Source: Curvularia clavata (taxonomy: Eukaryota). From it: a stretch of 40,469 bases of DNA. A model generated the notes under the pieces. That model worked only from the letters and a program-made list of their open reading frames with translations, searched no databases and was not told the origin of the DNA. Position numbers and translations under genes: made by a program. The DNA is taken from assembly GCA_023920165.1 (NCBI GenBank), contig CP089279.1, positions 2,976,001 through 3,016,469 on the forward strand, in the 5' to 3' direction. Numbering within the stretch: the stretch's first letter is position 1; each line of letters begins with the position of its first letter. This document shows, piece after piece, positions 30,734 to 40,469 of this stretch.

Positions 30734-32049
30734 TGTCAGGACCTGGTCCAAATTGGGACATGTTGGTCCAATTCCCTCCTTCTTCACGCTAGTTAGTTAG
30801 CTAGGGCTTACCTAAGGCTATAAAGCCTCCACGATCGCTAGAGGTGCTCGATAGCGATTCGTCTCGTGAATATATGGCTGTTAAAGTATAGTTCTCTCTT
30901 ATCTATCTCGTGCTGTACTTTCACGCTACTAACAGTCTAATATTCGAATCGCTCTCCTTAAGTACACCTACGAGATGTTAGAGAGAGCTATGCCGAATCT
31001 AGGTAGTTGCCAAACTTGGAGCCGCCCAAAGTTAACTCGAAATATGGTAGTAGGGGACTTATAGCCTACTCTAACTAGAGACTTAATCTAGCTATCTTTA
31101 AGTAAACTATCCGAGCCTGCCGTTACGGAGGCAGATTAGGCTGGACTGGTATAGAGAAGCTTAATTTAGGGCAGCCCAGCTCGACTTGAACTACCTCAGA
31201 CTACTATTGCTTAATAGCTAGACGAACTGCGCGCTTGGAGGTAACGAGCGCTTAATGAGTAAGAACTGAAACGTCTCTAGGAAATTAAGCGTTAGTTTGA
31301 CTAAGGTGACACAACAGTACTGACAGAGGATCTATATGAACTACACTATATAGTGGGGATACAACTAGAACTAAACGTGGGAGCTCTACGACTAGAAAAA
31401 CTAATATAGTTTATAAACCGCGATTGTGTTGAGTATAATTGCTAGAAACGCAAATATAAAGCAATATTTAGGAGAAGCCCTAAAACGTTCTAAATAGAGG
31501 TAGTTAAGATTAATTTTAGACTTAGGTATATTACTGACCTCCTACGCTCTATATAGGACGCCTATTATTACGACTACTATAGAAAAGATACAAATTGGAT
31601 ACCTATATGGCTAGACCTGAAGACTATAATAGTGGATTTACTAGAACTACTAGAATAATAGAAGCTTAAAGCCTACTAAGCTCTTAAATATATTAGATAG
31701 GACTAGTCTTAGGACCTAAACGACCTATTAGCCAAATTAGATATACTTTAGTCTGAATTAGATAATTCCTACTTAGAAGAGTAGAGAGTAAAAGACTTTA
31801 TAGGCGCTTTAATAATAATAATATAGAAAGAGTTGCTTTTACTTAAACTAGATTAAAGAAGTATAATCTTAGACCTAAACGCGCGAGCGCGACTTATCTA
31901 GAATAGAATAAAAAGAGAGAAGCCTAGTAGCGCTAAAATAACGCAGAATAAGTAAGCTAAGAGCGGTATACTACCAAAGAATATAAGAAAGTATAAAAAA
32001 ACTCTAAAAAAATAAAGACAGAACTCTACAGATATAAAAGATTTATACA
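30734..32049 (+). mobile_element. RIP-mutated LTR retrotransposon 5' part (209-bp LTR 30734-30942 plus degenerate gag-like region, probably Ty3/Gypsy)
   Basis: LTR is near-identical to 32705-32913. It is followed by a stop-riddled TpA-rich gag-like sequence. Superfamily assignment is tentative. Confidence 0.65.
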
Positions 32050-32564
32050 TGTAAGAAAGTTGTAGGTAGGTAAATAGGATAACTTTCTTAATTAACTAAA
32101 ATAGCTTATTAAGAGGTGAGAAATAGATATAAAATATCTAGTAAGTGGTCAAAATGTAGGTAATAAGTAGATATATTGGAGCTAGGTTCTCAAATAACTA
32201 TAGACAGTCAGCGTCTTTTATAGACAACTAACGGAGATAGGCGCTGCGTCTATTTCCTATCTTGATTTCAAATCAACTACTAGACTAAAGTATAATTAGA
32301 TTAGTTTTTTATCTTTTTTATGATTTATAAGATTTTATTTTAGACTAAAATCTTTATAATCTAGCTTGCTAAGCAAGCTAGAGCTAAAATATAGAATAAT
32401 GACGTCTTATATCTAGATAAGAAAGCGGAGAAATACTTAAAATACTCGGCAGTTAATAGCTACATCAAATGTAGAGCTACAAGAACAAAAACAACTAATT
32501 TGAATAGCTAATCTTTTATAGAATAATACTAAAATATAATATAATAATTATATTATAATTTACA
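32050..32564 (-). repeat. Putative 3' LTR of the Copia element
   Basis: A minus-strand polypurine tract AAGGGAG (32567-32573) directly precedes TGTAAA. The other end is TGTAAG at 32050 on +, giving TGTAA...TTACA termini. Confidence 0.55.
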
Positions 32565-32704
32565 CACTCCCTTAATTATTATATTATTATAATCTTATCA
32601 TTTAGCTTAATATACTAATGGTAAGTAATATAATTATATATCTAATAAGCTTAATATTCTTAATTAGATATTTTCATTAGACTAAATTTGCTTTTAGATA
32701 ATAG

Positions 32705-32913
32705 TGTCAGGACCTGGTCCAAATTGGGACATGTTGGTCCAATTCCCTCCTTCTTCACGCTAGTTAGTCAGCTAGGGCTTACCTAAGGCTATAAAGCCTC
32801 CACGATCGCTAGAGGTGCTCGATAGCGATTCGTCTCGTGAATACATGGCTGTTAAAGCATAGTTCTCTCTCATCTATCTCGTGCTGTACCTTCACGCCAC
32901 TAACAGTCTAACA
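32705..32913 (+). mobile_element. Solo LTR (209 bp) with 5-bp target-site duplication AATAG
   Basis: TG...CA ends, AATAG at 32700-32704 and 32914-32918, same family as 30734-30942. Confidence 0.9.
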
Positions 32914-33096
32914 AATAGCTTAATATACTAAATATCTAATTTTCAAAATAGTCTATTTATACTTTTATAATCGTAGCGATTATAAATAGTAATATTGTCT
33001 ATATAGCTATAATAGCTAATATAGGTCTAAATTATATTAGTTGTTGTAACTAATACTTAGCGCATTTAGGGGTTGAAAACCTAAATACGAATATAT

Positions 33097-33127
<31 letters not shown>

Positions 33128-33136
33128 AATATAGAT

Positions 33137-34938
33137 CTAGTTTATATTTACTAGATGCAGTCTAGTATTAAAGCTATTTAGCTTTTCTATACTAGTTGGT
33201 TTAGTTAATATATCTGCTAGTATTGTTTTAGTATTTTCATATACTAAATTAATATTATTTTCTTGTAGATTTTCTCTTACAAAATGGTAAGTTATATCTA
33301 CATGTTTTGTTCTAGCGTGATATATTGGATTTTTAGCTAATTCTATAGCGCTCTGGCTATCTGTTTTTATAATATTTGTAATATTAAATATATTACTAAT
33401 ATCTTGTATAGAATTATAGCTAAATAGTTCTTTAAGAAAGTTATTCAAATATAGACTTTCTTTAGTTGCTTCTTTTAAAGCTATATATTCAGCTTCAGCG
33501 CTTGAAATAGCTACTACTTTCTGAAGCTTTGAAATCCAGCTTATAGCTATATTTTTATTTTGCCAGTTATTTAAATTATTTTGCAAAATAAATAAATTTC
33601 CACTAGTGGATTTTCTAGTGTCTAAATCACCCCCCCAATCTGAATCACTAATTCCAATAAGATTGATTGTTTTATTTATATATTTTTGAGATTCAGTTTG
33701 TAGAGTAAGATTTAATCCATAGTTTTTAGTTTTTAATAAATAGCTAAATATATTATTTAGATATTTATAGTGCTCTAAGCTAGGATTACTCATATATCTA
33801 GCTAAATAATTAACACTAAATGCTAAATCCGGCCGAGTAAATATAGTTAAATATATTAAACTGCCGATTTCTTTTTGGAAATCTTTAGTTAATTTAGTAT
33901 TAATTTCTTCTTGGTTTTTAGCTAGTTTACTACCTATAGCTATAGGTATATCTTTTGGCTTATTTAGTAGCTTATTATACTTAAACAGTATTTTATTTAT
34001 AAAGCTACGCTGAGTAATTACAATAGATTTCTTAGATCTATCTCTTATAATTTCTACACCAAGAAATTCTCTAATTTCTCCCAAATTAGTTATTTCTAAT
34101 TTAGATATATCAGAAATTTCTTTATATAAATCGTCTATTAGATATTTAGTTTTTGCAAAAACTAGAATATCATCGACGTGTGTAGCTAAAATAACTGCTT
34201 TTTTATTATGGATATAAATACTATTGTCTATTTTTAGTGGAGTAAAATCTAGCTGTTTTAGTATATTTGCTAGAAATAATTGCCACTGTCTAGACGCTTG
34301 TTTTAATCCATATAGTGCTTTATTTAGTCTACAAACTATATTATCATAGTTTTTGGTAGCTATTATATTTTGAATATATTCAATTAAAGCTTTGTCTGTT
34401 ATAGTTTTTAAAGCTTGATGTAATATATATTCTTCTAATCCAATTGGTAGTTGGACTAGTGTATTTTTATTATCTAATTCTGCATTGGGAAAAGCTTGTT
34501 TTACATCCCAAGTATAAATTTCCCAATCTAAATAGCAGAATATAGATAATAATAGTCTAATAATACTAGGCTTACTAGTAGAAGCAAAGGTTTCTTTATA
34601 ATTTATATTATATTGTTGTAAAAATCCTTTTGCTACCCATCTAGCTTTATATTTTTTAATAGTATTATCAAGATTTAGCTTTTTATTTAAAACCCAGCGG
34701 CCTTTTATCATATTATTTTTAGTAGCTGGCTTTTGTATTAAATCCCATGTATTAGATTTAATTAAATTGTCTATTTCTAGCTTCATAGCTTCTAGATATA
34801 GATTTTTATCAGATCTAGTTAATACTTCTTTATAGCTTTTTGGCTCAACTAAGCTAGTATTTATAGAAGTATTTAATATATTATATAATATAGAGTTATT
34901 ATATAGACTTTTCCAATCAGCTCTAGATTTGATATTAT
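33137..34938 (-). mobile_element. Ty1/Copia pol fragment: reverse transcriptase (RVT_2) plus RNase H, reading frame open
   Basis: EPKSYKE, KGRWV, KARWVAKGF.Q, DVKQAF, RLNKALYGLKQASRQW, HVDD, RPDLAF, SDSDWGGD..TRKSTSG, SSAEAEY, HARTKHVDI.YHFVRE, ADILTKP. Gag, protease and integrase are absent. Confidence 0.95.
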
Positions 34939-34950
34939 TAGACTGGTAAA

Positions 34951-35235
34951 TGGGCTGGGGCAGGGCTGGGGCAGGGCTGCTAAGAGTTGGGTAGGGGTAG
35001 GGCTGGGTCAGATGACTAAGCAACCCAGCCCTGCCCCTACCCAACTCTTGGCTAACCCAGCCCTACCCCAGCCCGCTTATTAAGCAACCCAGCCCTGCCC
35101 CTACCCAACTCTTGGCATTTAAGTTGGGTAGGGGCAGGGCTGAGTCAGTCAAGAGTTAGGTAGGGGCAGGGCTGGGTTGCTTAATAAGCGGGCTGGGGTA
35201 GGGCTAGGTTGCTTAGTACTAGGTTATGCTGGGTC
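34951..35235. repeat. G-rich subterminal repeats in alternating orientation (AAGAGTTGGGTAGGGGCAGGGCTGGGT unit)
   Basis: Inverted pairs about 34982-35008/35023-35049 and about 35055-35114/35150-35210. Each unit has four G-tracts. Confidence 0.9.
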
Positions 35236-35423
35236 TTAGTTATTAGATATATATATACTCCGTATATATCAAAGACTTATCACGCATAATTATCACAGTA
35301 GTAAATTAAAAATTAAGAACTTATAAAACTTTCATTTAACTTCTAGCATATAGCTAGTTCTCAATTATAGCTATCCCTCAATCATAAAAGCCATCAGTAC
35401 TTGATACTCCATCATAAAAGCCC

Positions 35424-36392
35424 TCAGTACTTAATACCACCCATACCAAGCCTATTAAGATAGTGCTTAACAAGATCCCCATCCTTCTTCTAAATAGTAA
35501 CTCTCTTAGCATAGATAGCGTTCATATTACAGTCTAGATCCGTTAGCAGCTATAATTAATATCTGTAATAATATAACATACCCTCAAGAAATCCAACCAA
35601 AAAATACTCAGCAGCCTCTTAAAGACCTTCCAACGCCTCTCTCTAGATACATAGAGGGTGTTGCGGATATACGTCTCCCATAATCTCCCTAACAAGTTTT
35701 ACAAATCGAGTCCTTAGAATAAGCAGATCAGTAGACTTCTAGAATCTTTTAATCTCTTTTAGTACAACAGCTAGTAATTATTAGTCGCTTACTGTAATAA
35801 ATAACTATAATAAACTTACTACCAGACTTAAACCTACGCCTCTTAGAGGCGCCAGACGTAGATAGTTGAGCACCAGGCGGTGCAGGAGGGCCGGACTCGT
35901 CTTCCTCGCTGCTTTCCGACTCTTAATCCTCATTATCGGGCTTAGGCGTGGGCGGCCTATAATTAACTGGCTGCTTACGAGCGGTTTTGCCACCTACACC
36001 ATAGAACATAGTGCCAGTCCTACTATTAGTTAGCTATTACTTGTAATAAATTACCGTGATAAACGTACGCAAAAGATACAAGATAGCCACTAGTCAAGAT
36101 ACGGGGCGGAGAGGGATAATCGTAAGTAGTAGTCCTAGCATTTATTAGCCATTTCCTATAATAAATTACTATAATAAACTTACGGATTTAGTTGGCCACC
36201 TTCGGCAGAAAAAGTAGGATTGCCAGTCATCTAAGCTCCCAAAACCTCAAATTCGTCTTCAAGAGCTTCTAATTCGCGAGGTGACAGCAGCTAAGACACC
36301 TGTCTTTCAGGCGACGGGAGCACATTTAACCGTTCTACCATCTCCTCAAACGACTCATCGTCTAGCCCCCCCACCTCGTCTACTGCTAACAT
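35424..36392 (-). pseudogene. Histone H3-like gene with long N-terminal extension, RIP-inactivated in this copy
   Basis: Five exons (introns 36135-36183, 36023-36068, 35771-35819, 35534-35581) splice to 777 nt without frameshift: ART...GGKTARKQP...KRRRFKSGTVVLKEIKRF*KSTDLLILRTRFVKLVREIMGDVYPQHPLCI*REALEGL*EAAEYFLVGFLEDCNMNAIYAKRVTI*KKDGDLV. The four histone-fold stops lie at Gln positions of fungal H3. Confidence 0.9.
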
Positions 36393-36916
36393 AGTACGTG
36401 ATAAATCTCTGTAATAACTAGTAGGGTTGAGTTGAGAAATTTGGCGTTAGGCTAGGAAAGTTAGATTTAGATTAAGAGAATTGGTGGACAAATACTTAGC
36501 TATAGAGTAGTTAAGAATTTTAGGGATATATAAGTAGGTAAAGATAAAGGTAAAGGTGAGTGCACAGATCACCCAGAGTCTTGCTAAAGGTCTGCGAGAT
36601 AGTTAGCAAGAAATCGCCATAACTCAACGAAGCAGTAATTAAATACTATAATAACTAGCTCATTAGATAGAGCTACTCCAGGGCTTTCAAATAAGACTAA
36701 AATCAAAGCACTCCAACTTTTATTATCCAAGATATTGGCTATATGAAAGATGTTGTTCGCTAGCCCAACGCTAGCGCGAAATCCAGAGCGCACGGACCCC
36801 TAATTACCTTAATAGATAGACTATCACCAAACTTCCTACTCTCTCTTAGCAACCATCCCCCCCCTCCCTACCCCCACCATACTAGACGTTATATCAGTAC
36901 TTTATCACAGTCAACA

Positions 36917-38113
36917 ATGCCGCGCACGCCAGAAATCAAGCGCGAGTCTACGACAGAGGCTGATAGCAACGTACCTAAGGGTCTAGCACCTCCACGCGTT
37001 GCCCAAATACCCAAGGACTTTACTAAGCAGAAGTAGGCAGATCTTACTAAAATAATAATCCCAGTCTATTATCACAGTAAATACTAACGTTAGTAAGGCT
37101 TTAAAAATAAGCAAAACAAAATCAATTTTATCATTACGCAACGTAGATCTAGAGGTTCCCAAAAGAGTCGTCCAACTAGTCTGCGAATCCAATATCAAGG
37201 TCAGCTTAGTAACACAGCTCGAGCTATTGCACAGAGAGATCTCGCCGCGTCACGTACCAAGGAAGAAGCCGCTCTCCAACGCGCCAAAGATACTAACCGC
37301 GCTACTCGGGCGAAATTTCTCAAGTCACTCAAAGAGAAAGAATAGTATAAGACCGCCAGAGAGGATAAGAAGAATAGAATTATAAAGAGCCATCTTAAAG
37401 AGCATGAATCCAAGCGCTTTAAAGAAAAGCAAAATAGTAAGTTATCACAGTCTTTTATTACAGACATCTACTAACAGTTATTAGCTAATTGGATGGCGTT
37501 TGCTCTCCAAGCTGTGCACGCGAAATGGTCCAAGATCCAGAATGAGATCGACAAAAGACGGCATCAGCTTATTCTCCAGACTACCTCTAGCGACGCCCCG
37601 TCTAATACCTCTACTAAGAGGTTACGCGTTTCTGCTCGTCTCTATAGTCGAAAGGGGGTTATTAACTCACTTATACGCAAAGAATATCTTCGAGAATTGG
37701 CTAAGCTAAACAACAACGCCTTTAAGAGCGAGCAAGCACGAGATAAATAGCTCAAGTTTTACAAGAACCTTTCTCCCAAAAAAAAAGAACTTGCTATAGA
37801 TAGTTCCTAGCAGTAAGTTTATCACAGTTTATTATCACATTCAAGAACTAACTAGTATAGACAAGAAAAGCCTACTTCTATTCTCAACCAGTTTGATCCA
37901 GATACGCGTCTTAAGGATAATAAGCCATATATCGAAGGCTATGATAGTAACAAGTATGAAGAAGAGATTAATAACGAGGATAAGATTATAGACGAGAATG
38001 AGGATGGCTATAGTAGTAACGATAGCTTTTTGGCTCCAGAGGGGGCTGATAGTGCTAAGATAGAGGAGGCTGAGGATCAAGACGAAGAGGCTGAAGAAGA
38101 GAAGTCTAAGTAG
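36917..38113 (+). pseudogene. Unknown protein with basic coiled-coil region and acidic C-terminal tail, RIP-mutated
   Basis: ATG 36917, introns about 37033-37093 (donor uncertain), 37437-37484 and 37813-37860. K/E/R-rich helix (RTKEEAALQRAKDTNRATRAKFLKSLKEKE) and tail EEEINNEDKIIDENEDG...EEAEDQDEEAEEEKSK*. Confidence 0.65.
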
Positions 38114-38410: not shown

Positions 38411-40299
38411 ATGGCTAAGCCTTCTACAGAACCGCCAGATATCCTTGCGCATCTCAAGATAAATACTCCACACCAAGACAAAGGTGGTCTTAAAGTCACA
38501 CTTACACTCATCCAGTATCCAGTACTTGAAAATAATAGCAATAAAGAGAACAAAGCAATTATTTCAAACTAGAAGGAGTAGTGGAATAAAACACCATAAG
38601 CCCGAGATCCTTCGAAGCCAGTTCCACACTAGGGCTCTTCTTGTCGTACGAGCCAAATCTGGGCAAACTTTGGAAAGGCTGCAGAGATCCTAACTGGCCG
38701 TCCATATATCTTCTGCTCGAACTGCAGTTATATACTCGCGCACCCATCAGCTGGAAATATTAGTACAAAGCATCTTCATAGACATCGTCAAACCCAAACT
38801 TACCAGCTTATCTCTTCGCCTATACACAACAAGCTATCGAACTCACTCCGCCAAAGTATCCCACCACCAATAAATATTAATCCTCGCGCAATACCAGCCT
38901 ACTCAACTAAGACATACGAACAAGAACTAGTAAGAGTAGTAGTTAATAACTACTAGAGCTTCCGAACACTTAAGCGGCCATCATTTCAACGATTTCTCCA
39001 GTTTCTCCAGCCCAACGCTGTAATTATTAGCCGTTATAAATTCAAGCTAGCGTTTAAGTTACAATTTAAGAAGGCTTCAGCTAAGCTTCTCAATGATCTT
39101 AGCCAAGGAACAAAAATATCACTTGCATTAGATAGTTAGGCTTCAAGTAACCATCTTAGTTTCCTTACAATCAAAGGTTACTATATCAATACTCAATAGC
39201 AACTCAAAGAAAAACTTTTAGATTTTATACCGATCCATAGGAGACATACTAGAGCTTCAATAGCAGATAAAGTTCTAAAACTTCTTTCTAGAAGTGAACT
39301 CCAAAAAAAATTGCTATCCATTACTTGCGATAATGCCAGCAATAATAGCACTCTTACGCAGTCTCTTCAGCAAGGTCTACAACAACTTAGTATAAGCTAG
39401 AGTCCAAGTAAAAACACTATTCCCTACTTAGCCCATATTATCAACCTCGTTGTCCAGGATATTATCCAGCACTTAAGGCTGTCAGCTTCTACCAAGTTAG
39501 ATAATATACAAGATTTACAGAGACAACAGATCAATAAAGTAGATGCCAACATCTCAGTCCCCAATTCACTTCGCAAGGGAAGAATTTTTTATCACAGTTA
39601 TTTATCACATACTAACTACAATATAGATTAGAGCAATCTGCATTATAGTTGACTCATCTCCTCAGCGATACGAACAGTTTCTCGCAACACAACGGGATCT
39701 ACCACCAAAAAAACGCCTTAGTGTTATCCGTGATGTTAGAACACGATAGAACTCGACATATAATATGTGTAAGCGCGCAGTCAAGCTTCGGCAATATATC
39801 AATAAATGGCTCAAAGATAAAATCGCGTTAAGGGTTCCTATCCATACCAAAAACCTCTCAGAGGCCGACAACAATACTGATATTGATTCTCAGGATCTTA
39901 AGAGACTACGACTATCTGCACAAGAATAGTCGCATCTTAAGATAGTTACTAAAATACTTAGCCATTTCAAGACTACAACAATATCTCTAAGTCAGAGTTA
40001 AAAACCTCAAATACCATATATCTAGCTCATGTATAATCAGCTTTTTAATTTTCTTAATTAGATGGAGGTTGATTTAGAAGAAGACTCAGAGAATAGCAAC
40101 TGGCCACAAGTAGTAAGAGCTACGGCGGCGAAAGAGAGAGCAAAGTTAAGTAAATACTACTCGAAAACTAATAAAGAGCGTAGCTTCTTATTCAACTGCG
40201 CGACGATTCTTGATCCAACGCAAAAGCTTACAGCCTACGAGGTATTATCACAGATATTTATCACAGATAGATACTAATAGAAGATATAGAATAAGATAT
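38411..40299 (+). pseudogene. hAT transposase (BED-like zinc finger plus RNaseH-fold DDE core), RIP-mutated and 3'-truncated
   Basis: SQIWANF...CSNC...HLHRH, ISLALDS*, ITCDNASNN (about 39320), AHIINLVVQ (39431), SSPQR, DVRTR*NST (about 39732), ILDP (40206). Introns about 39578-39626 and from 40242. No C-terminal dimerisation domain before the telomere. Confidence 0.92.
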
Positions 40300-40415
40300 G
40301 GGGTTAGGGTAGGGTTAGGGGGTAGGGTTAGGGTTAGGGTTAGGGTTAGGGTTAGGGTTAGGGTTAGGGTTAGGGTTAGGGTTAGGGTTAGGGTTAGGGT
40401 TAGGGTTAGGTTAGG
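40300..40415 (+). repeat. Telomeric (TTAGGG)n tract
   Basis: Tandem TTAGGG with the G-rich strand running toward the end. The first units are imperfect (TAGGG, TTAGGGGG). Confidence 0.97.
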
Positions 40416-40469
40416 AGGTGCTGTCACACGAGTATGGAAGTCGTTCTTTAACCTTAGCAATACGTAACC
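40416..40469 (+). other. Untrimmed Oxford Nanopore native barcode and adapter (artefact)
   Basis: AGGTGCTG + 24-mer TCACACGAGTATGGAAGTCGTTCT + TTAACCTT + AGCAATACGTAAC matches the native-barcode flank layout and ligation adapter. The 24-mer matches barcode 13 as I recall it. Confidence 0.93.

Follow-up and report, generated by a model that had tools for sequence, protein, structure and literature searches.

A stretch of 40,469 nucleotides of Curvularia clavata (contig CP089279.1), hereafter called the window, carries a histone H3-like gene, H3L, on the minus strand at 35424-36392. The locus is very probably an H3L pseudogene disabled through repeat-induced point mutation (RIP), belonging to a three-gene hAT transposon of which this is one of many RIPed copies, truncated by the telomere. 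The gene is not a histone gene of the host but the H3L of the transposon. H3L lies on one strand of the element, and a central open reading frame (ORF) and the hAT transposase gene lie on the other, with at least 5.3 kb preserved before the telomere cut (Table 1). A preliminary description of the window had placed the H3-like gene in a mobile element, which is borne out by this layout, with the central ORF and the transposase next to H3L. The copy sits in a subtelomeric AT-rich block, and the right end of the element has been removed by the telomere.

H3L could be modelled as five exons running from 36392 to 35424, separated by four short introns (46-49 nt) with GT..AG borders. Joined, the exons give a frame of 258 codons, with seven internal stops (all TAA or TAG) and a terminal TGA. 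The position of intron 3 is common to the H3L genes of the metagenome relatives L001, L004, L012 and L053, and that of intron 4 to L001, L004 and L053. A contig from sequencing run X19, guessed to be RNA, is unspliced at introns 1-3 over 35582-36854, and in a contig of the same run the 48-nt GT..AG intron of the central ORF at 37813-37860 is skipped. The tail quoted in the preliminary description is recovered at the junction of exons 2 and 3, which reads ...F-A-R-T-G-T-M-F-Y-G-V-G-G-K-T-A-R-K-Q-P, the A coming from a codon split as GC and T. The extension of about 90 aa claimed there corresponds to the roughly 92 codons of exons 1 and 2. Its frame is open save for two TAG codons, its introns are in phase and it is present in the model of an intact Exserohilum turcicum orthologue (P0004); against it stands the shorter E. 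turcicum model P0002 (162 aa), which begins at the Met just ahead of V-G-G-K. An alternative start Met also occurs in exon 3 of the window at 36009-36007. On this evidence the extension is a probable feature of the window/E. turcicum form. No Pfam family was found for exon 1, and the ESM Atlas contained no usable look-alike of the extension, whose own model there has a pLDDT (predicted local distance difference test) of 0.58. The extensions of P0004 and P0142 did not resemble each other significantly (BLASTP E 0.11, in a different register), and the idea of a V-L-P-S-P motif common to both was dropped.

Table 1. Features of the truncated hAT element and its immediate surroundings (positions in the window)
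Feature	Position	Strand	Remarks
Ty1/copia reverse-transcriptase fragment	33137..34940	-	RIP-degraded; outside the hAT element; Pfam RVT_2 E 3.7e-44
Left terminal and subterminal region	34944..35300		starts TGGTAAATGGG; G-rich GGGTAGGGGCAGGGC-type inverted repeats at 35015-35217; inward paired TTATCAC at ~35279-35300
H3L exon 5	35424..35533	-	end of helix 2, helix 3, C-terminus (..CNMNAIYAKRVTI*KKDGDLVKHYL..IKY); one internal TAG; stop TGA 35426-35424
H3L intron 4	35534..35581	-	48 nt, GTATGT..CTAAC..TAG
H3L exon 4	35582..35770	-	covers helix N, helix 1, loop 1 and the greater part of helix 2; Q positions hold three internal stops
H3L intron 3	35771..35819	-	49 nt, directly after ..K-S-G; bears the 21-nt motif
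H3L exon 3, H3-like tail	35820..36022	-	V-G-G-K-T-A-R-K-Q (K14/K18 equivalents), acidic Pro-rich insert with one TAA, then K-R-R-R-F-K-S-G
H3L intron 2	36023..36068	-	46 nt, GTACGT..CTAAC..TAG; bears the 21-nt motif
H3L exon 2	36069..36134	-	66 nt; part of the putative N-terminal extension; colinear with P0004 residues ~76-97
H3L intron 1	36135..36183	-	49 nt; bears the 21-nt motif
H3L exon 1	36184..36392	-	ATG 36392-36390; colinear with P0004 residues 7-75; putative N-terminal extension, acidic and rich in Ser and Pro, with two internal TAG
Central ORF	36917..38113	+	introns, acidic C-terminus, RIP stops; homologous to ORFs of L001-L005 and L007
hAT transposase	38411..40282	+	RIP-mutated, its first 400 codons containing 8 stops; lacks the final exon, to which the dimerisation domain belongs
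(TTAGGG)n telomere repeats	40283..40413	+	cut the element ~22 nt into the last transposase exon

Exon 4 alone matched the Pfam family Histone (PF00125) with an E value of 3.7e-9 and 37.3 bits against a gathering cut-off of 26.4, while the intact orthologue P0004 matched it at E 9.8e-30. Within the fold, H3 blocks follow one another in H3 order (..R-R-R-F-K-S-G-T-V-V-L-K-E-I.., ..L-V-R-E-I.. and ..A-I-Y-A-K-R-V-T-I..), corresponding to the succession P-G-T-V-x-L-x-E-I, L-V-R-E-I and A-I-H/Y-A-K-R-V-T-I by which the H3 family is recognised. Compared with canonical H3 and H3.3, H3L retains the G-G-K-A-P-R-K-Q block and the P-G-T-V-A-L-R-E-I and A-I-H-A-K-R-V-T-I segments, but its tail is without the A-R-T-K, A-R-K-S (twice) and K36 sites. 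From the full canonical set (K4, A-R-K9-S, K14, K18, A-R-K27-S and K36), the K14/K18 block alone is found in the window and P0004. Loop 1 has two more residues than that of H3, helix 3 and the C-terminus have changed in sequence (..K-D-G-D-L-V-K-H-Y-L-N-R-L-G.. in the window against canonical ..K-D-I-Q-L-A-R-R-I-R-G-E-R-A/S), and the window/E. turcicum form measures 258-263 aa in comparison with about 136 aa.

A word-indexed protein search with exon 4 returned one protein, P0002 from E. turcicum, with 74% identity. It falls in the same 90% cluster as P0004 (KAL6166231.1), an intact E. turcicum protein of 263 aa, with which the spliced frame of the window aligns end to end, 178 of 257 aligned residues being identical, far beyond chance. 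The 79 differences include 41 that are explicable by C>T/G>A alone and 38 that are not, so that P0004 is a diverged orthologue and not the same gene as the window H3L. Four of the seven internal stops fall on Q codons of P0004, one lies beside a Q at an alignment gap, and two (codons 34 and 54) fall on P and H. The tail of P0004 has no A-R-T-K, its K9 region is replaced and an acidic insert stands in the place of A-R-K27-S. According to the alignment, P0004 (R-R-R-R-F-R-P-G-T) also has no K36/K37 and no K in loop 1 at the site of H3 K79, and it retains the lysines of L-Q-K and A-K-R-V-T-I-Q-K-D.

The preliminary description had stated that K4, K9 and K27 are absent while the K14/K18 equivalents are kept, and that an acidic, Pro-rich stretch replaces the ARKS(K27) region; both are seen in the window, where the stretch contains one TAA, and in the intact P0004. 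The 'ART' of the window corresponds to A-N-G in P0004, with both differences of the non-RIP type. The resemblance of this motif to the start of H3 is therefore accidental, and the motif is internal rather than N-terminal. Among the five tail lysines of the window, three (codons 119, 152 and 157) are RIP-type products of E or R in comparison with P0004. The further claim that the lysine loss is older than RIP also stands: it follows from the genetic code that C>T and G>A changes cannot destroy AAA or AAG, and the intact P0004 has the same losses. The X19 copy, from a run with the same species label, shows 138 differences from the window, every one of them A>G on the plus strand. On the H3L coding strand these are T>C changes, neutral for Lys codons, so that an un-RIPed copy has the same lysines. 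In a HMMER search of the whole library with P0004, only its own cluster was closer than generic H3 among 11,545 H3-family proteins, and the extension-bearing sub-lineage is represented by fewer than three sequences. The odd tail is an inherited trait of the H3L sub-lineage common to the window and the intact E. turcicum gene.

The transposase of the window had 47 homologues at E <=1e-3, the closest being P0261 (Logan) with 83% identity. P0300, a 28-member 'Dimer-Tnp-hAT' cluster of Pyrenophora tritici-repentis, was 57% identical over 58% of the window transposase. The match to the Pfam hAT RNase-H family (PF14372) was weak and below the cut-off (E 5e-4). The hAT dimerisation domain (PF05699) was found in L003 (E 4.5e-19), in the exon that is missing from the window, and is also listed for P0300 (precomputed). 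The stops in the transposase fall at conserved W positions. P0261 and P0322 were considered as the plain un-RIPed form of the window transposase and rejected, since 13-20 of 400 residues differ in non-RIP ways.

The central ORF could be traced by tblastn with the intact exons of L003, which matched the window at 37097-37444 (E 1.6e-17) and 37481-37795 (E 2.9e-16). It is conserved at the same position in the closest elements, L001-L005 and L007 (for example at 1374-2513 in L003 and 1779-2825 in L004), with a very acidic C-terminus. No Pfam family and no ESM Atlas match were found for it. An AlphaFold model of exon 3 (6-row alignment, pLDDT 77, predicted template modelling score 0.54) gave no Foldseek match at E <=0.001, and a wide structure search with the same model returned single long helices alone (Z <=5.9).

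At its putative left terminus the element has the start (TGGTAAATGGGTTGGGG) that the metagenome relatives L004 and L002 show at both ends, together with G-rich inverted arrays. The element ends are inverted arrays of 200-350 bp whose units are G-rich and telomere-like (GGGTTGGGG, GGGTAGGGGCAGGGC); they lie at 34944-35217 in the window, at 110-377 and 6093-6333 in L002, and at 1-264 and 6003-6095 in L004. Such length and richness in G are unusual among hAT ends, and the arrays could form G-quadruplexes. A second repeated feature is a 21-nt motif of two TTATCAC half-sites (RIPed form TTTATYAYRGTNATTTATYAY), of which 11 copies occur between 35552 and 40264, all within the element, where 0.1 would be expected. 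Six of them, all in the H3L part, have minus-strand orientation, and the other five, in the central-ORF/transposase part, are on the plus strand; the copies stand directly after intron 5' splice sites (GTAAGTTTATCAC..) and just upstream of start codons, and close to the element ends the motif faces inward. Its un-RIPed pattern was found in 6-8 copies in each of L001-L004, in 1-3 copies in L005-L008, and was absent from the remaining 72 loci. The motif may serve as a binding site for the transposase and occupy introns as well, or it may reflect the multiplication of a single intron.

Copy number was taken from public sequencing runs. Runs X1 and X2 (DNA, one species label) contained 412 and 649 contig pieces, respectively, at least 80% alike over a 5.1-kb stretch. 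The differences of X1 from the window are mostly transitions (C>T 442, A>G 213, G>A 166, T>C 10), and the multiple pieces together with the overwhelming share of transitions indicate a multi-copy RIPed family. Long pieces with G wherever the window has a RIP-type A were found in X19 and in X3, which bears another species label. The window itself combines an excess of C>T/G>A changes with high TpA/ApT ratios and stops at Q or W codons, as expected of a RIPed repeat. The H3L copy in the window is dead and makes no protein.

The association of H3L with hAT transposases was followed in metagenomes with a pattern derived from 33 aligned transposase homologues. The scan gave 598 matches, of which 329 encode a relative; the best 80 loci were kept and searched for H3-like ORFs by tblastn with five H3L proteins. 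Such an ORF was present in 15 of these 80 loci. Where at least 2 kb of upstream sequence was available, 12 of 17 loci had it upstream on the opposite strand, as in the window (L001-L005, L012, L014, L024, L044, L053, L059 and L066), and in L052, L069 and L075 it lies just upstream of the transposase on the same strand. The remaining 60 loci have less than 2 kb upstream and say little on linkage. L001-L004 show the same layout of H3L, central ORF and transposase as the window. Loci with H3L have transposases that share 24-52% identity with the window query, so that the linkage is old. One of these loci, L012, is a very AT-rich contig. Its hAT transposase shows 28% identity to the query, and the H3-like gene upstream has a tail close to the canonical one; the host is unlikely to be an ascomycete from the same group.

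A comparable element of P. tritici-repentis, with a transposase, a central ORF and an H3L gene in 5.6 kb and 26 copies, is described in Manning 2013 (PMC3538342), where its H3L was assigned to neither H3 nor CenH3. The three-gene layout is the same, with 5.6 kb there against at least 5.3 kb here. According to Table S10 of that paper, its H3L reads E-D-C-N-I-N-A-I-H-A-K-R-V-T-I-Q..K-D-S..R-Y; the segment E-D-C-N-[ILM]-N-A-I-H-A-K-R-V-T-I-Q is common to the window, P0004, P0142 (Parastagonospora nodorum) and P0071, and the window likewise has a ..K-D and ..R/H-Y-x C-terminus. A paired TTATCAC motif upstream of the P. tritici-repentis H3L start can be seen in the text of Figure S3. As expected of an H3L of that type, the window gene lies inside a hAT element with a central ORF and a transposase, has the derived motif, is multi-copy and falls with other H3L in a group of 8-10 rows (91-93) in the trees presented below. 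Differences could also be noted. The P. tritici-repentis copies are nearly identical and un-RIPed whereas the window copy is RIP-dead, and their H3L has 157 aa, a MARTK start, a basic tail and a retained T-R-K-A motif. In the window/E. turcicum form K4, K9 and K27 are missing, an acidic insert is present and the N-terminus is probably longer by about 92 codons.

In Mycosphaerellaceae, RIP-killed H3 copies are carried by unrelated hAT elements of 9.5 kb, as reported in Dhillon 2019 (PMC6710886). As in the window, the H3-like sequences there lie in hAT elements confined to AT-rich blocks, and all copies were killed by CA-to-TA RIP. That source describes elements of about 9.5 kb with one or two intron-less, mostly truncated H3 retrocopies, in contrast to the window gene with its four introns and full fold. 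Histones are not mentioned in Muszewska 2017 (PMC5751038). In the full-text literature, whose coverage leaves subscription journals outside, hAT-linked H3-like genes were found in Manning 2013 and Dhillon 2019 only, and a linkage across many hAT lineages was not found stated.

The surroundings of the element change sharply at about 30 kb, from gene-dense, ordinary fungal DNA (1-30000) to the RIPed block. The first part contains a GH3 beta-glucosidase-like ORF, an alpha-L-rhamnosidase-like ORF, a sugar transporter, a fungal-specific transcription factor, major facilitator superfamily (MFS) transporters, an S15 peptidase and a short-chain dehydrogenase. The last 10 kb of the window are AT-rich, with a GC content of 0.24-0.43 (0.24-0.29 across 32001-35000) compared with about 0.5 upstream. 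From 30001 onwards TpA/ApT is 1.15-1.94 and the composite RIP index is positive in 10 of 10 1-kb windows, while in 29 of the 30 preceding ones it is negative. About 20 TTAGGG repeats terminate the chromosome within the last transposase exon (40283-40469). The last ~55 nt of the window (AGGTGCTG...TTAACCTT AGCAATACGTAAC) resemble what we take to be an untrimmed nanopore barcode flank and adapter; if this is right, the read, and hence the chromosome, truly ends there.

The preliminary description had proposed checking intact homologues for a consistent loss of K9 and K27. Such a loss is seen in the nearest homologue, which is without an ARKS-type motif, but not throughout the family. Eleven intact tails of close relatives were compared (L001, L003, L004, L005, L012, L053, P0071, P0141, P0142, P0207 and P0004). 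The G-[GR]-K block of K14 is present in all except L053. A motif of the type [AST]RK[STAKQN] is found at the K27-like place in 9 of 11; P0141 has V-R-K-N instead, and P0004 alone has nothing. Five tails start with M-A-R-T, followed by K4 in L003, L012 and P0071, by R in L004 and by E in L053. A lysine at the K9 place is seen only in L003 and P0071. The distant hAT-linked genes L014, L044 and L052 have no H3-like tail at all. As nine tails carry the K27-like motif and three start with MARTK, a conserved role of the family cannot depend on losing these lysines. The ancestral H3L tail was therefore probably canonical-like, and K9 was lost often across the family. Among the tails compared, the total loss of K4, K9 and K27 (with K36 and K79, as aligned) and the acidic insert are specific to the window/E. 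turcicum lineage.

A CenH3-like role, also proposed in the preliminary description, is disfavoured by two quick trees. In the first, with 161 rows and the fold region only, the window joined P0004 and P0002 with a support of 99 in the Shimodaira-Hasegawa-like approximate likelihood ratio test (SH-aLRT), inside a group with P0071, P0141, P0142, P0207 and P0216 (93). Canonical H3 and the 18 CenH3-type rows (90) lay outside this H3L group. For the second tree, of 105 rows, nine long-branch rows and P0002 were omitted, 14 canonical rows were sampled and 13 fold sequences pieced together from the loci were added. The window and P0004 (99) then grouped with L001, L003, L004, P0071, P0141, P0142, P0207 and P0216 (91), and L012 and L053 were placed near this group (85). 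L014, L024, L044, L059 and L066 (97), L052/L075 and L069 fell outside all H3 and CenH3 rows on long branches. The CenH3-type rows (17-18, with R-W-Q) include the Dothideomycete proteins P0087 and P0090 as well as named CenH3 proteins of Cryptococcus and Blastocladiella. Two further H3-like proteins with non-canonical tails, P0102 (Colletotrichum shisoi, 1398-bp contig) and P0169, are encoded on tiny contigs, were paired in the trees (86-88) and carry ..I-K-K-L-Q-K.. and ..T-L-[QM]-K-K-D-[VI]-D-L-V.. blocks; transposon-type H3-like genes may also exist outside Dothideomycetes.

That H3L is a decayed paralogue of the centromeric CenH3/Cse4 is extremely improbable. In one NCBI record (KAL6166231.1) the E. 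turcicum orthologue carries the name 'centromeric DNA-binding histone H3-like protein cse4', and H3L shares with CenH3, Cse4 and CENP-A an H3-type fold, an N-terminal tail that is long and divergent, and additional residues in loop 1. A longer loop 1 is, however, not specific to CenH3. In both trees H3L groups with hAT-linked rows and not with those of the CenH3 type, and it has R-I-Q where the latter have R-W-Q. Its best matches among solved structures are H3.1/H3.3 (E about 3e-26 over the fold), with no CENP-A or Cse4 chain named among the 60 listed. It also lies inside a transposon and is multi-copy and RIPed.

The intact family members would be real H3 variants encoded by the transposon and kept by selection, and the lysine loss would be a late, lineage-specific change in a tail varying freely across the family. 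What suggests such selection is that linkage to the transposase has persisted over deep divergence. Several points weigh against the reading of H3L as a transposon gene. Linkage and intact frames are what speaks for selection on H3L, and among the 17 loci with 2 kb or more of upstream sequence, five (L007, L009, L020, L054 and L064) have no H3-like ORF, although L007 holds the central ORF and its contig is probably simply too short for H3L. Both trees are quick ones of about 100 columns with moderate support, in which the family branch (91-93) remains below the starred level of the tool. With the right end missing, a pair of terminal inverted repeats and an 8-bp target duplication are not demonstrable, and the exact left end at 34944 is placed by its likeness to the L004 terminus. 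It is presumed that P0004 lies within a hAT element, and likewise that the H3L-linked transposase of Manning 2013 corresponds to P0300.

What an intact H3L would do for its element can be explained in different ways. It is possible, if doubtful, that H3L serves as a cofactor of transposition, forming with host H4 a tetrasome-like or nucleosome-like particle that would bend or organise the long subterminal repeats rich in G, or else label the element for its transposase, with a largely dispensable tail that drifts. The histone fold is conserved while the tails run from canonical to unrecognisable across hAT-linked copies, and a family-specific helix 3 and C-terminus (..K-D-[SG]-x-L-[AV]-x-[RH]-Y-[YFL]) replaces ..K-D-I-Q-L-A-R-R-I-R-G in the region that in H3 forms the H3-H3' interface. 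The G-rich inverted terminal regions of 200-350 bp would also fit this role, which is purely inferential; the central ORF yielded no fold or family clue to it. A functionless passenger, captured once by 'transduplication' and carried along while its tail decays by neutral drift, is rather unlikely. The tails are indeed highly variable, and Manning 2013 and Dhillon 2019 read such genes as captured host H3. However, H3-like ORFs stay linked to transposases as divergent as those found here, and the tail exon is open in the seven metagenome loci whose tail was readable from a Met (L001, L003, L004, L005, L012, L053 and L014), a persistence unlikely for a gene without function.

The preliminary description had put forward a candidate silencing-proof histone. 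Deposited on the element, an H3L without K4, K9, K27, K36 and K79 but with K14, K18, K56, K115 and K122 could not carry H3K9me3 or H3K27me3, and no heterochromatin of the HP1/DIM-2 type would form. We consider this improbable. The intact P0004 does combine the same lysine losses, K36/K37 and K79 included, with strict retention of G-G-K-A-P-R-K-Q and of the lysines in L-Q-K and A-K-R-V-T-I-Q-K-D, and a linkage to the transposon family that spans deep divergence speaks for the gene being of some use to the element. The Gcn5 recognition site on H3 has G-K-x-P as its core, and the idea is attractive for the sub-lineage because its tail keeps only acetylatable sites. On the other side stand the K27-like motifs, MARTK starts and two K9-place lysines of the close relatives, to which the P. 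tritici-repentis H3L, also starting with MARTK, can be added. The distant hAT-linked tails without any H3 likeness fit free drift, the family is massively RIPed in the species of the window, that is, defeated by RIP, and nothing here supports deposition in cis, H4 binding or an effect on marks. An architectural role in transposition and neutral drift of the tail are at least as likely as anti-silencing. In its widest form the idea would make H3L, rather than a passenger picked up sporadically, an ancient core gene of a whole fungal hAT clade, accompanied in the nearest sub-clade by the central ORF and by paired TTATCAC motifs in the H3L introns, near the starts and introns of the other genes and at both ends. 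The window/E. turcicum lineage would then have evolved a methylation-blind H3 (K4, K9, K27, K36 and K79 lost, K14, K18 and K56 kept, acidic insert), keeping the element free of H3K9me3 and H3K27me3; this wider proposal would be a long shot.

The window locus is a dead copy with no effect on the host. It points to an under-studied class of proteins, the histone H3 variants encoded by DNA transposons, which earlier work treats as captured host genes, one case being P. tritici-repentis and a separate one a single clade of Mycosphaerellaceae. The linkage was seen here in 15 of the best 80 environmental contigs, with tails from canonical to unrecognisable. If it is true that H3L serves the transposon, this would be a eukaryotic mobile element with its own chromatin protein, used for chromatin evasion or for transposition. 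The naturally intact alleles of E. turcicum and P. tritici-repentis make the role of H3L directly testable.

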